64,000 nucleotides of DNA from positions 2,976,001-3,040,000 of the forward strand of contig OZ242320.1 in assembly GCA_965208125.1 (NCBI GenBank), in the 5' to 3' direction. Each line of letters starts with the position of its first letter. The stretch's first letter is position 1. Under the pieces are notes generated by a model. It was not told where the DNA came from, searched no databases, and worked only from the letters and a program-made list of their open reading frames with translations. A program made the position numbers and the translations under genes. The DNA comes from Candidatus Latescibacterota bacterium. GTDB lineage: Bacteria; Latescibacterota; UBA2968. This document shows positions 43,287 through 49,112 of the stretch, piece by piece.

Positions 43287-44945
43287 TTATGCGTTGTGCC
43301 ATGCGTCTTCCCAGGGCGTGCCTTCGAGCGATTCTGCGGCGATATCCTGAGGGCTGCGTTTGAGCACTTGTTCTTTATATTTTTTGATGCTCAATTTGTC
43401 GGGTGATAAGGAGGTTTCTTTGCTGATGGCGCGGGTAAAGGCTTCGGCAAAGGTTTCGATGCTGTCTTTTTCATCTTCGGGCAAGCGTTTGGGCCAGGGG
43501 CCGTCGTTGAGGTTGACCGTGCGGCATTCTTCTTCTGTGGGAATGCGGACCGGGCCGGGATATGAGCGTAGTCTATCGCCGTCAAGCGAATCACTCAGGC
43601 CGTGCTGTAGTTCCCAGGCGATGATTTGATCGCGAAATTTTGCCGCCAGTGCGGGGTGTTCGGCGATGAGGTTGTGCTGTTCGTGTGGATCATTTTCAAG
43701 GTCGTAGAGTTCTTCGATTCCGCCGTGGGCAAAGAAGGCGTATTTGTGTTTCTGGTTGCGTGCTGAAATCCAGCGTCCTTTGCCCTTGCCGTAGTCTATA
43801 ATCGCGGCTTCTCGAGGCTGGGATAGACCTCCACCTGTTGCGCCCAGGAGGTTTGACCCTGACAATGGGCCGTGTTTTTCCGGGTACTGAAGGTCGAGTT
43901 CTTCTATGAGGGTGGGAAAGAAGTCGAGCAGGCTGACGAGGGCATCACATTGTTGCCCCGCCTGTGTTTTGCCGGGCCAGCGGAGGAGATATGGAATGCG
44001 CACGGAGGATTCATAAGGGCAGTTTTTTTGCGAAAGGCCGTGTTCGCCCATCATTTCACCGTGGTCTGAGACAAAGAGGACAACAGTGTTATCGGATAGG
44101 CCGAGGGTTTCGAGTTCATTCAAAATGCGACCGATGCCGTCGTCAACATGAGAGATGAGGCCATAGTAAAGGGCACGCAGGCGGCGCAGGCGGTCGGGAT
44201 CGCGATGGGCACCATCCAGACGTCCGCGGCTGCCGTAAAAATTGGGTGGCAGGGTTTCGATAGGGCGGTCGGCAAAGGGCGGAAGTTCCATGTCGGCGGG
44301 GTCGTACATGTCGTCGTACGGTTCACAGGGCGCAAAGGGCGGGTGCGGCGATATCCAGGAACTCCATAAAAAAAAGGGTTGATTGGTGCGGTAGCGCATA
44401 TGTTCTCGGAGAAAGTCAATGGACCGGTCGGCGACCCAGGTATTTTTGTGGTGTTCAACAGATATGCCACAGGTTTGGGGCTGGAAGAAGAGCAGATCGC
44501 GGATGCCTTTGGGAAAACGGGTGCGAACGCCGTTTTCTCGCAGATAGCGGAGGTAGTCGTCATTGACCCGGTGATCGATACATTCTTCCATGGTGAGGAG
44601 GTTTCGGAAGCCGTAGTGCCGACCGTGAAAGTGCATTTTTCCAATGCCCTGCGTCCAGTACCTGGCGCGCAAAAGAAGCGTCATGATGGTGGGAAGTTCG
44701 GGTAAGGGACCAGGTAGCGCACTGTTGTCTGTCCAGTGGTGTCGGGACATTCTGTGTCCCGTGATGAAACTCATGCGCGCGGCAACGCAGACGGGGGTGG
44801 GCGTGACGGCCTGTGTAAAGCGTACACCGGAATTGGCGAGCGCGTCGAGGTTGGGCGTGCGGATCGTTGTATTTCCAGCGCAGCCCAGGGCATCTGCGCG
44901 CTGCTGGTCGGTCATAAGGACGAGAATATTGGGGCGATCAGACAT
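43287..44945 (-). CDS. Formylglycine-dependent sulfatase-like hydrolase
   Basis: [18 protein letters not shown] (CxAxR variant), GKMH, SDHG; start reset to MSDRPN. Confidence 0.9.
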
Positions 44946-44956
44946 GGTGTTTGATA

Positions 44957-46453
<1,497 letters not shown>

Positions 46454-46511
46454 CTATAGTAAAGTCGAGAAAGTCGATGAGGATTATTTTCCCCTTTAGA
46501 TTATAGAATAC

Positions 46512-46546
46512 AAAAATCCCCTTGACGCAGACACATCAAGGGGATT
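46512..46546 (-). terminator. Intrinsic terminator (attenuator) in the guaB leader
   Basis: AATCCCCTTGA-N10-TCAAGGGGATT 11-bp stem plus U-run, about 70 nt before guaB. Confidence 0.8.
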
Positions 46547-46644
46547 CAAGCGGCAGGCACAGTTACACACGCCGCTCCGAGGCCTGGCGGAGGTGTAAAC
46601 CGCCGTTTTTTTCGGCAACAATAAGTGTAAAGCCTCTGGTACAT
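46546..46644 (-). CDS. Putative guaB leader peptide (32 aa)
   Basis: GGAGAAGATC-ATG; MYQRLYTYCCRKKRRFTPPPGLGAACVTVPAA*; the stop abuts the terminator stem. Confidence 0.55.
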   Translation of the reverse strand: MYQRLYTYCCRKKRRFTPPPGLGAACVTVPAA

Positions 46645-46675
46645 GATCTTCTCCAAATCGCAATTAGATTTGCCA

Positions 46676-46704
46676 AATATACCGCTTCTCTTTTGTTCTG
46701 TCAA
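46676..46704 (-). promoter_or_regulatory. Sigma-70 promoter of the guaB leader
   Basis: TTGACA-N17-TATATT on the minus strand. Confidence 0.8.
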
Positions 46705-46943
46705 TATGTGTGAAATAGATTTTGTTCACAGGGGTCTCTGGAAAAGGGGTTGACACCGATCTTAACTGCTTATATTTTTTATTTTTATTCACACGAACTT
46801 CCAATGTTGTTGTCGGTTGATTAGCTGTTTTAAATTTTTAAGACCGGGATAATTAACATTCCTCATAACGCATTGTTGTAGAGTTGGATATACCGGGAAC
46901 TCTACTGATTTGTATTTCGTTATAATCTAAAGCAGATTTTGGC

Positions 46944-46972
46944 TTGACAGGGTTTTTTTCATTCATTAGATT
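46944..46972 (+). promoter_or_regulatory. Sigma-70 promoter for the TPR-exbBD-tonB cluster
   Basis: TTGACA-N17-TAGATT. Confidence 0.6.
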
Positions 46973-47107
46973 CTTCAGCCCTGCTACCTGTAATTGCATT
47001 ATTTTTTAGGAGTGAGTTATATATTGTTATTAGCAGGGAAGCGGCTTGTCTAAACTATGTGTCGTTTCCTCCAAATTTTTATTCACAATATTATGGAGAC
47101 TGGAGCC

Positions 47108-48430
47108 ATGATTTTGGATTTGAAATTCCGATCTGGTTTTTTGGTTTTGCTGTGTGGGTTTTTTGTTTTGAGTACAGCGTCATTTTGTTTTGCCGAAGAA
47201 GGCGAGACCGAGATGACACAGGCGGATTCTATCAAGAGGGCCAGCCAACATTTGGGTTGGGGTGCTCGGTATCTTAATAGTGGGCAATATGAAGACGCCG
47301 AAACACAGTTGCTCAAATCATGGGGGTTTAATCCCAAAAGAGCAGCAACGGCTCGACGCCTGGGCAAATTGTATAATGAAACAGAAAAATATGGGGACGC
47401 TATTCGATGGTATCAAAAAGCCATTGAGATTGACCCTATGACCAAGTACACCAGAGGAGTACACAAGATATTGAGCAGTATCTATGAAATACAGGAGCAG
47501 CCTGAAAAAGCCATTGGAAGTTATGAAGCATTGCTGGCATTAGACCTCGAGTTAGAAAAAATAATTAAAGAAGCGTTGTTGGCCCCCGAGTCAGAGAAAA
47601 AAATTAAAGAAGCGTTGTTGGCATTTGATCTCAAGTCAAAGGACATGAATAAACTCGAAGAGGAAAAGAATAAACTCGCGGAGGAAAGAATTCCAACTTA
47701 CCATAAGCTGGTCAGTTTGAATGTTGAAACTGAAGACTATGAGATGGCATTGGATTATGCCAAAAAGTGGGGTGAATTGGCTCCTGATGATCCCGAAGTG
47801 CGGGATATGATTGGTAAATTACATCTACAAACGGGCGGCGAGGACGAAGCTCTGGCCGAAATGGAGAAAGTGCTGGAGTTAAACCCCGATGATTATGCTA
47901 CGCTGGAAAAATTGGCGGGTATGTATGATCGAAGAGGCGATGATGATAAAGCCTTTAATGCCTTTGAAAAATTATATCAAAATGATGATTCGAGTGTTTT
48001 CTTTTTGGAAGAGACCATTAAATTGGGCAAGAGGATAGGAAAATCCAAAAGCTGGATCGTTAGTCGGCTTGAAAAATTACATGCCCTGCGGCCCGACAAT
48101 TTAGGCGTGATCGAAGAATTGGCCGAGTTGACCGGAAGCCTCAAGTGGGTCAATAAAGGACTTAAACAAGATTCACAAAATGGTAGGTATCCCTATATGA
48201 TGGGGGATCATTATTTTAGCAGGTGGGAAAATTCAAGTGGAAAACAGGATTCGATCAATGCCTTGAGATGGTACAAAAGGGCGTTGATAGATCCGATGTG
48301 GAAAGGCAATGCCACTGCAATGATCCTGACACTTGATCCTCCCCTGACCGAAGAAGAAAAGAAGCGTCGAGAATTTTTTGAAGGTAGTAAAAAGAAAAAG
48401 GAGGAGGTGGAAACAGAAGGTAAGAAGTAA
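47108..48430 (+). CDS. Exported TPR protein
   Basis: Signal peptide and multiple TPRs (AIRWYQKAIEIDP, EKVLELNPDD); exact start uncertain. Confidence 0.85.
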   Translation: MILDLKFRSGFLVLLCGFFVLSTASFCFAEEGETEMTQADSIKRASQHLGWGARYLNSGQYEDAETQLLKSWGFNPKRAATARRLGKLYNETEKYGDAIRWYQKAIEIDPMTKYTRGVHKILSSIYEIQEQPEKAIGSYEALLALDLELEKIIKEALLAPESEKKIKEALLAFDLKSKDMNKLEEEKNKLAEERIPTYHKLVSLNVETEDYEMALDYAKKWGELAPDDPEVRDMIGKLHLQTGGEDEALAEMEKVLELNPDDYATLEKLAGMYDRRGDDDKAFNAFEKLYQNDDSSVFFLEETIKLGKRIGKSKSWIVSRLEKLHALRPDNLGVIEELAELTGSLKWVNKGLKQDSQNGRYPYMMGDHYFSRWENSSGKQDSINALRWYKRALIDPMWKGNATAMILTLDPPLTEEEKKRREFFEGSKKKKEEVETEGKK

Positions 48431-48491
48431 AAGGCTTTTGTGTTGTTAATCCATTTTTCGCAATTCATAACCTAACTTCGGGAGATGTGGC

Positions 48492-49112
48492 ATGGTTGAT
48501 CTTTTTATTAAAGGCGGAAACTTTATGTATCCGTTGCTGGTGATGTTGTTCTTTGGTGTTGTGGTGATGATTGAGCGCTTTTACACGCTTTTTAAGGCAC
48601 ATATCAATGCCAAAGAGTTTATGGTAGAGCTTCAGGATGCCCTCAAGCAAAATGGGCCAGAAGGTGCTGCCGAGTTGTGTTCCAATACGCGCGGCCCAGT
48701 CGCCACGGTGCTGCATGCAGGGCTGTTGCGTTTAGACCGCGGTATTGAGCATGTGGAGAAATCGATTGAGGAATCCGGTGCTATCGAAATGGCTTTTCTC
48801 GAGCGTGGTCTCGTGTGGCTTTCCACTGTTGCAAACCTGGCACCTCTTGTCGGTTTCCTGGGCACTGTGTCGGGTATGATCCGAGCTTTTAACGATATTG
48901 CCGCTGCTGGCGATGTTGATCCCAGTGTTGTGGCTGGCGGTATTTCTGAAGCTTTGATTACAACGGCTTCGGGCCTGGTGGTTGCTATTCCAGTGCAGGC
49001 TGCATACAATTTCTTCCTGTCAAAAATTGACAAGATCATCATCGATCTTCAGGAAAGTTCCAATCAATTTGTCGATGACCTGATTCAATTGGGCTACGGC
49101 AAGGAGGAATAA
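48492..49112 (+). CDS. exbB: MotA/TolQ/ExbB proton channel
   Basis: APLVGFLGTVSGMIRAF, GISEALITTASGLVVAIP. Confidence 0.92.
   Translation: MVDLFIKGGNFMYPLLVMLFFGVVVMIERFYTLFKAHINAKEFMVELQDALKQNGPEGAAELCSNTRGPVATVLHAGLLRLDRGIEHVEKSIEESGAIEMAFLERGLVWLSTVANLAPLVGFLGTVSGMIRAFNDIAAAGDVDPSVVAGGISEALITTASGLVVAIPVQAAYNFFLSKIDKIIIDLQESSNQFVDDLIQLGYGKEE

Follow-up and report, generated by a model that had tools for sequence, protein, structure and literature searches.

The window, a 64,000-nt stretch of contig OZ242320.1 from a Candidatus Latescibacterota bacterium whose positions serve as coordinates throughout, carries on its minus strand guaB, the gene for IMP dehydrogenase, behind a leader that contains a promoter, a short upstream open reading frame (uORF) and an intrinsic terminator. 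We propose, with roughly even confidence and from sequence comparison, that this leader controls guaB by translation-coupled (leader-peptide) attenuation of transcription, in the manner of pyrE/pyrBI. The comparison supports the conservation throughout one order of the whole predicted layout, namely promoter, Shine-Dalgarno (SD) sequence, ATG, reading frame, stop position and RNA hairpin. IMP dehydrogenase is the first committed enzyme of GTP synthesis and sets the ATP/GTP balance.

An initial annotation had described a promoter TTGACA-N17-TATATT, an SD GGAG, a 32-codon uORF and guaB about 70 nt further on, and all of these were present on the minus strand. The core of its attenuator proposal survived the three results named beforehand as able to overturn it: the uORF and the spacing between its stop and the terminator are conserved, guaB has no promoter-like site of its own past the terminator, and no Rfam family matched. 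The proposed switch between stems found no support, and the readings as a stalling sensor or a new riboswitch are weakened.

The element precedes guaB throughout one order

The guaB protein was searched for in 41 genomes, the window's own among them. The search returned 30 loci, and a promoter and the hairpin lay upstream of guaB in all 30; they were also found at two further loci, L096 and L153, giving 32/32. The promoter, TTGACA-N16-18-TAnnnT, was located 100–260 nt 5' of the hairpin in each of the 32. The hairpin pattern was scanned over 168 genomes of the phylum and was recovered in 29/30 genomes of family f1 and 22/22 of family f2, the two families of a single order, mostly at one site per genome (a few genomes had one extra match). 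The sole miss in f1 was a genome of 91% completeness that yielded no guaB either. The pattern occurred in 0/3 genomes of family f3, 9/76 of family f4 and 3/36 elsewhere, the matches in f4 and elsewhere being unrelated sequences, and the hairpin was not found in the more distant families of the phylum. The IMP dehydrogenase of f4 is only 34–39% identical and guaB of f3 72–74% identical. Family f3, a sister of the order's families, keeps a hairpin CGCUCCUUGG..UCAAGGRGCG, preceded by GTGTGTG in 2/3 genomes, and putative TTG-initiated frames without an SD run through it.

At 14 of 16 further fetched loci guaB lay just downstream of the hairpin; the two without an adjacent guaB were L165, where an insertion sequence intervenes, and L185, a short contig with a different palindrome. 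At L165 (genome G080) the insertion sequence parts an intact leader (36-codon uORF and hairpin) from guaB by ~4.3 kb and encodes a 372-aa open reading frame (ORF) matching the DDE transposase family DDE_Tnp_1 of Pfam (7.9e-15), a natural uncoupling of leader from gene. A scan of genome contigs with the hairpin pattern found guaB at 2/120 loci among the matches listed (L096 and L153); it is uninformative on distribution because those matches are generic terminator-like palindromes from many phyla. Public runs with near-identical DNA were mostly sponge metagenomes.

A reading frame ends at the hairpin

The uORF was compared in 49 distinct leaders from 10 genera (g1, g2 and so on). An ATG uORF was present in 47/49, starting 81–133 nt (mostly ~100) 5' of the hairpin; in the two g2 leaders the start at that position is TTG or GTG, and their N-termini (MRVIF and MRLII) are alike. 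Most uORFs comprised 27–40 codons, and the three that read into or through the hairpin were longer. In 46/49 leaders the stop codon fell in the interval from 20 nt upstream of the hairpin CCCC to 5 nt within it. Stop offsets were -5 or -9 in g1; -4 in g5, g9, g3 and one g1 leader; -3 in g10 and one g2 leader; -9 in one g11 leader; and +5, by way of a TGA inside CCCCTTGA, in g8, one g11 leader and one g2 leader. The initial annotation had also placed the uORF's TGA over the terminator, and the terminator scan agreed: with a scanned stem of 46547..46514, the G and A of the TGA are the first two stem bases, and this GA together with the following AU pairs with the U tract.

The manner in which the frame has changed was also recorded. 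Length changes within the uORF in the core of the window's genus and in g6 were -6, +3, +12 and +21 nt, all multiples of three, and insertions and deletions in the 5' untranslated region (5'UTR) and after the stop included 1, 2, 4 and 7 nt. Late frameshifts between sister species (g11, g2, g8 versus g10, and part of g1) led to another stop codon next to the hairpin, where the sequence has TGA in two of the three frames. Across 21 leaders of the window's genus, TTGACA and TATATT of the promoter and the SD sequence TTGGAG were unchanged, and the 5'UTR flanking the SD differed in sequence and length.

These features were set against dinucleotide shuffles of the leaders with the hairpin held fixed. 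An ATG ORF of at least 25 codons ending at -25..+8 arose in 11–31% of shuffles. A composite test then required an SD 4-mer 4–11 nt upstream of an ATG, at least 25 codons and a stop at -25..+8. This combination was present in 37/49 leaders and 6/10 genus representatives versus 0.3–2.4% of the shuffles, a figure that is not a clean probability, as the leaders are related. Between genera the uORF sequences can hardly be aligned, which makes an accidental frame that was simply inherited unlikely. Chance is exceeded not by the lone ORF but by the combination kept from genus to genus, and its conservation suggests that the uORF is translated.

In one leader, L027 (genome G010), the stop at the hairpin has been lost; the frame crosses the terminator and ends in a TAA overlapping the guaB ATG (TAATG), so that this uORF looks translationally coupled to guaB. 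In L026, from a sister species, the stop lies 9 nt before the hairpin.

The hairpin is maintained as RNA

The terminator of the window folded at -24.7 kcal/mol (z = -7.69), and none of 200 shuffles was as stable. Across 28 hairpins, 93.6% of the cells of the helix were paired. The pair just below the core covaried (A-U in 8, U-A in 6, C-G in 3, G-C in 3, G-U in 2), and the two pairs above the core varied among U-G, C-G and U-A and among G-C, G-U and A-U. Wobbles occurred at three positions (U-G in 6, G-U in 3 and U-G in 15); as these would be A-C mismatches on the opposite strand, the hairpin acts as sense-strand RNA. Wobble variants aside, the 8-bp core CCCCUUGA/UCAAGGGG was identical in every leader of the order, and the loop varied in sequence and length.

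The four stems named in the initial annotation (GGCGG/CCGCC, CTCCG/CGGAG, AGCGGC/GCCGCT and TTACAC/GTGTAA) are present in the leader. Their proposed role as mutually exclusive alternatives did not hold up: the fold of the uORF body in the window was no better than chance (z = -1.29; 21/200 shuffles as stable), and AGCGGC/GCCGCT is not kept in the genus. GC-rich hairpins were present in the second half of the uORF in every leader, with no shared architecture. The internal hairpin showed only one-sided, G-U-compatible changes in the genus consensus and was no better than chance in the window alone; the homologous stem of g6, CTCCGCC/GGCGGAG, had one compensatory U-A/G-C pair (3 versus 3 sequences). 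A conserved pairing partner (antiterminator) for either terminator arm was found neither in the consensus nor in single folds, which fits direct blocking by a ribosome and not a trp-type switch. A candidate antiterminator complementary to CCCCUUGA, a partial GUCAAGG, occurred in some g6 leaders only and was rejected as not conserved. We likewise rejected an SD-like action of the 3' arm on a downstream start, as no consistent start codon follows.

Upstream of the hairpin, GTGTG was found in 9/18 representative leaders, with 17 occurrences versus 2.4 expected. The consensus for polymerase pausing is GGN6TGYG, and it occurred 8 times in relatives versus 1.4 expected.

No Rfam family matched at gathering score in the 64 kb, and at E up to 10 the interval 44000–49000 gave three chance matches only, such as the terminator as a CRISPR repeat (E = 5.1); this agrees with the initial annotation, which had recognised no known riboswitch. 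Its suggestion of a new riboswitch is weakened because the region 5' of the hairpin differs between genera while the hairpin is invariant, the reverse of the pattern of a riboswitch with an aptamer core.

The leader peptide is loosely constrained

Single-nucleotide codon changes were counted per clade in the uORF frame and in the other two frames. The core of g1 had 9 synonymous and 18 non-synonymous changes (fraction 0.33 versus 0.46 and 0.27 in the other frames), and g6 had 20 and 40 (0.33 versus 0.30 and 0.26). There was no synonymous excess in the uORF frame of g8 and g10 together, a weak one in g3 (2 leaders; 4/7 versus 2/10 and 2/8), and 10 synonymous to 8 non-synonymous changes in g9 (3 leaders) versus 2/14 in each other frame. 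The peptide sequence thus appears mostly unselected and weakly constrained, which fits selection on the translation of the frame and not on its product.

A loose pattern recurred in the peptides: a start that is hydrophobic or contains Cys, then a basic patch, then Pro-Pro and finally G-x-C-V. In g1, g3, g6, g8, g10 and one g7 leader a common CCNCCGCC motif, read in one and the same frame, encodes the Pro-Pro. The window's own uORF translates to MYQRLYTYCCRKKRRFTPPPGLGAACVTVPAA and contains an A7 run (46612–46606), Pro-Pro-Pro codons (46593–46585) and GTGTGT (46570–46565). The A6-7 run (window 46606–46612, minus strand; Lys-Lys) was unchanged in 21/21 leaders of the genus, with AAG never replacing AAA, and a separate A7 run stood near the 3' end of the uORF in 3/3 g9 leaders (L153, L186 and L188). 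These runs may be relevant to ATP-dependent pausing or slippage.

The locus in the window

The features of the locus are collected in Table 1. The promoter is near-consensus, with 11/12 consensus matches. After the 3' arm of the terminator come an A and then T5 (46516–46512), and guaB starts 67 nt (GTG) or 70 nt (ATG) past this T run. The guaB product matched Pfam IMPDH PF00478 (E = 2.4e-164) and has two CBS domains. A sulfatase gene lies downstream, and a divergent gene for a TPR protein upstream.

Table 1. Features of the guaB leader region, in window coordinates
Feature	Position	Strand	Details
Sigma-70-type promoter	46676..46704	minus	-35 TTGACA 46704-46699, 17-nt spacer, -10 TATATT 46681-46676
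Shine-Dalgarno GGAG	46651..46654	minus	6 nt 5' of the uORF ATG
uORF (leader peptide)	46546..46644	minus	32 codons plus TGA; ATG at 46644, TGA 46548-46546
Internal GC-rich hairpin within the uORF	46563..46598	minus	TTACAC-CTCCGC...GCGGCG-TGTGTAA
Intrinsic terminator	46512..46547	minus	5' arm CCCCTTGATG 46543-46534, loop, 3' arm CGTCAAGGGG 46527-46518
Spacer from terminator to guaB	46445..46511	minus	Carries the guaB ribosome-binding site AAAGGA
guaB, IMP dehydrogenase	44957..46444	minus	GTG 46444 or ATG 46441

Contigs from four metatranscriptome libraries of two studies ran unbroken from guaB through the terminator into the leader, ending at 46652–46658 (X13, X17 and X18) or at 46701 (X16); they do not resolve RNA ends, strand or levels, and carry-over of DNA is possible. 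Their likeness to the window was mostly 90–99%, with half of the X13 pieces under 90. Such bridging agrees with a single transcript that starts at the predicted promoter and spans leader and guaB. The interval 46702–46816 was uncovered by contigs of the four RNA runs, which is only consistent with an untranscribed promoter and was not used as evidence. On the minus strand between terminator and guaB, no promoter-like site was found. A TATAAT at 46506–46501 was rejected as a promoter past the terminator: it has no -35 element, and it occurs in the window only and is not kept in the genus.

The spacer between terminator and guaB folded no better than chance (z -0.44). In the genus core, CTTTCT...AGAAAG (window 46445–46500, minus strand) can pair and cover part of the guaB ribosome-binding site AGAAAGGA; the fold in the window is no better than chance. 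At ~46487–46494 there is a AAAGGGGA copy of the terminator 3' arm.

By BLAST and pattern search, the leader is single-copy in its 5.75-Mb genome. A 16-nt identity elsewhere in the genome was considered as a second copy and rejected, since it falls inside an unrelated coding region; this chance match to the terminator loop (L002 ~1500–1560, at ~675 kb in the window's own genome) lies in what, judged from sequence, is a putative ankyrin-repeat gene. No similar leader stands before guaA, which directly follows another gene in another operon.

Other arrangements upstream of guaB were seen elsewhere in the phylum. At L210 (genome G071, family f13), guaB has its own TTGACA-N17-TATATT promoter and a 14-codon ATG uORF, with a different terminator-like hairpin CAGACGGCCAC..GTGGCCGTCTG ~90 nt further on; in light of this locus, control of guaB by a leader may extend beyond the range of the conserved hairpin. 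At L207 (family f5) and L208 (family f6), inspection by eye placed a putative tRNA gene with its own terminator directly upstream of guaB. A palindrome CCCCTTGGCGCGGCTCGGGCTCAGGGGG (one variant) was common to five genomes of genus g31 in family f4 (G159, G164, G165, G166 and G167), which are without an orthologous guaB.

Working model and precedents

In the attenuator that we propose, the strong constitutive promoter would start a ~160-nt leader. On bare leader RNA the stable hairpin with its U tract would form and transcription would end before guaB, so that the default state would be OFF. A ribosome translating the 32-codon uORF close behind RNA polymerase would reach the stop codon at the base of the hairpin and there cover or melt the 5' arm during synthesis of the 3' arm, allowing read-through into guaB (ON). 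The translation of the frame and its end point would matter, and the peptide itself little. The signal that we infer is the guanine nucleotide pool: low GTP may slow the polymerase at G additions, both in the UG-rich GTGTGT tract and in the GGGG that completes the 3' arm, whereupon the ribosome would catch up, much as with UTP at pyrE and pyrBI of E. coli, and read-through and IMP dehydrogenase would rise. The gene guaB lies in the pathway of GTP; that GTP is the nucleotide sensed is an assumption of the model.

The pyrE and pyrBI attenuators of E. coli are UTP-sensitive and translation-coupled, with termination as the default, relieved by a ribosome close behind the polymerase. The guaB leader resembles them in having an intrinsic terminator before a nucleotide-biosynthesis gene, in an upstream, probably translated frame whose end lies at the hairpin or beside it, with no antiterminator hairpin needed, and in its proposed default of termination with relief by a closely following ribosome. 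One study describes altered control of pyrE when the upstream rph stop codon is shifted with respect to the attenuator loop (PMC2784333); in the guaB leaders the stop position is conserved. The differences are that guaB belongs to the purine/GTP branch and is not a pyrimidine gene, that U-rich pause tracts are missing and in their stead stand a UG-rich tract and, in the 3' arm, a G4 run, and that the hairpin core is invariant over the order, which to our knowledge is not a feature of pyr attenuators. The organisms concerned are uncultured, and the likeness implies no sequence homology.

Short leader ORFs also govern the Salmonella mgtCBR operon, where mgtM is reported to respond to ATP via conserved adenines and mgtP to act via proline codons (PMC3641672); among bacteria they come closest as a precedent for leader ORFs through which a purine nucleotide and proline codons act. 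As in mgtCBR, translation of a short leader ORF would decide downstream transcription, and the window uORF has both an A6-7 run, invariant within the genus, and Pro-Pro-Pro. The A run and the Pro-Pro of the guaB leader are not conserved over the whole order; the mgt leaders use alternative stem-loops, and the mgt genes encode a virulence factor and a Mg2+ transporter rather than a step in the pathway of the sensed nucleotide. The order of promoter, SD, short ORF and terminator before a biosynthetic gene is shared with the trp, his, leu, ilv and Corynebacterium ilvB-II attenuators, and one article describes how an RNA motif found by comparison can prove to be a uORF attenuator (PMC10272879). 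The hallmark of amino-acid attenuators, a run of codons for one regulatory amino acid, was not found conserved in these leaders besides the Pro-Pro, and, unlike those attenuators, the guaB leader has no conserved 2:3 antiterminator and places its stop codon at the terminator itself.

Two further comparisons concern purine genes. The yeast IMP dehydrogenase gene IMD2 is reported to have GTP-dependent start sites and an upstream terminator (PMC3424548). It is an analogue in logic only, being eukaryotic and relying on Nrd1-Nab3-Sen1 termination and alternative starts, with no uORF or ribosome. Purine-related riboswitches (guanine/adenine, 2'-dG, ZTP, PRPP, ppGpp, xanthine and 8-oxoguanine) likewise place a leader and terminator before a purine gene; unlike them, the guaB leader matched no Rfam model and its pre-terminator region is not conserved between genera.

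Weighing of the readings

Several observations weigh against the attenuator. It does not need an invariant 8-bp core. In g6 the stop lies 13–20 nt before the core in 13/13 leaders (19 nt in 11), and because a ribosome footprint extends ~12–15 nt beyond the A site, a ribosome terminating there would get no further than the base of the extended stem. The frame continues through the hairpin in three leaders (L027, L164 at +30 and L163 beyond +70), and the f3 hairpin is followed by 2–3 U and preceded by no ATG uORF. By the shuffles, a single open 32-codon frame is unremarkable, and 12/49 leaders, including all of g9, g7 and g2, lack the composite combination, mostly for want of a 4-mer SD. The pause consensus is absent from the window's own genus, and the limits of the RNA-library contigs noted above also count here.

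The invariant core may be read by something sequence-specific, as the main rival of the attenuator or as an addition to it, the two being compatible. As a rival it would make the hairpin the regulatory element proper, the target of a trans-acting factor that stabilises or melts the terminator, with the uORF auxiliary or a later addition; the factor could be a protein that binds RNA (conceivably IMP dehydrogenase), a small RNA or else a small fold that binds a ligand. We consider this rival unlikely, yet it would account for a core that stays constant while flanking pairs covary freely and that f3 keeps with its weak U tract and no ATG uORF; as far as we know, an ordinary terminator would not be expected to retain its sequence across such divergence. 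IMPDH binds nucleic acid, including CT-rich single strands. The analysis yielded no candidate factor, however, the loop is variable, the leader 5' of the hairpin shows little conservation from genus to genus, in contrast to a riboswitch aptamer, Rfam gave no match, and the kept SD, ATG, frame and stop position would be left unexplained. A combined version, in which the leader is a purine counterpart of the pyrimidine attenuators that senses GTP by a race between polymerase and ribosome and whose invariant CU-rich/SD-like core is in addition read by a specific factor, possibly IMP dehydrogenase, is put forward tentatively as a doubtful but serious possibility.

The initial annotation had also raised the uORF as a stalling sensor. 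In this reading, EF-P, prolyl-tRNA or a metabolite bound in the exit tunnel would govern stalling at Pro-Pro(-Pro) and the basic stretch, and formation of the terminator would depend on where the ribosome halts, in the manner of mgtP, TnaC or SpeFL. The PPP following RKKRR in the window peptide, the shared in-frame Pro-Pro motif, the PPPIV that g3 keeps across synonymous differences, the synonymous excess of g9 and the precedent of the proline-codon ORF mgtP (PMC3641672) speak for it. The reading is nonetheless weakened because the peptide evolves almost freely and Pro-Pro occurs in only 6/10 genera (g5, g9, g11 and g2 being without it). In the two best-sampled clades, the g1 core and g6, there was no frame-specific synonymous excess, peptides barely align between genera, and the distance from Pro-Pro to the hairpin ranges from ~40 to 76 nt; moreover, the Pro-Pro nucleotides form one strand of a covarying stem, which alone could be enough to explain their conservation. 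We therefore judge stalling improbable. Least probable, to the point of being very unlikely, is a leader free of metabolite regulation, whose terminator sets a fixed low read-through or which makes a stand-alone small RNA or small protein. Promoter, ~160-nt leader and terminator do form a complete transcription unit, and in G080 an insertion sequence parts that intact unit from guaB, but the element is single-copy, upstream of guaB at 32/32 loci and mostly the only pattern site per genome in the order; its stop codon is held at the hairpin base, the RNA-library contigs bridge leader and guaB, and a small protein should show a codon-level constraint that is mostly missing.

Implications

Nucleotide-sensing attenuation by coupling of transcription and translation is textbook for pyrimidine genes, and bacterial guaB is, as far as we know, controlled by protein repressors, by growth rate and, in some Firmicutes, by riboswitches. 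Text searches of literature covering few subscription journals found no description of coupled attenuation for guaB or GTP in bacteria. Among the matches listed, papers on guaB with a uORF, terminator or riboswitch described no such element, and nearly all of those on transcription attenuation of IMP dehydrogenase with GTP dealt with RNA polymerase II or with yeast.

With a conserved uORF-terminator device, from an uncultured lineage, guaB control would gain a third kind, and the ~49 natural variants would be material for working out how termination is tuned by where the stop codon lies. The invariant hairpin core, the one truly odd feature of an otherwise known attenuator type, is a separate puzzle that may point to an RNA-binding factor not yet known. 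If both inputs were real, the race between polymerase and ribosome together with a core-binding factor would amount to two-input control of the IMP branch point.

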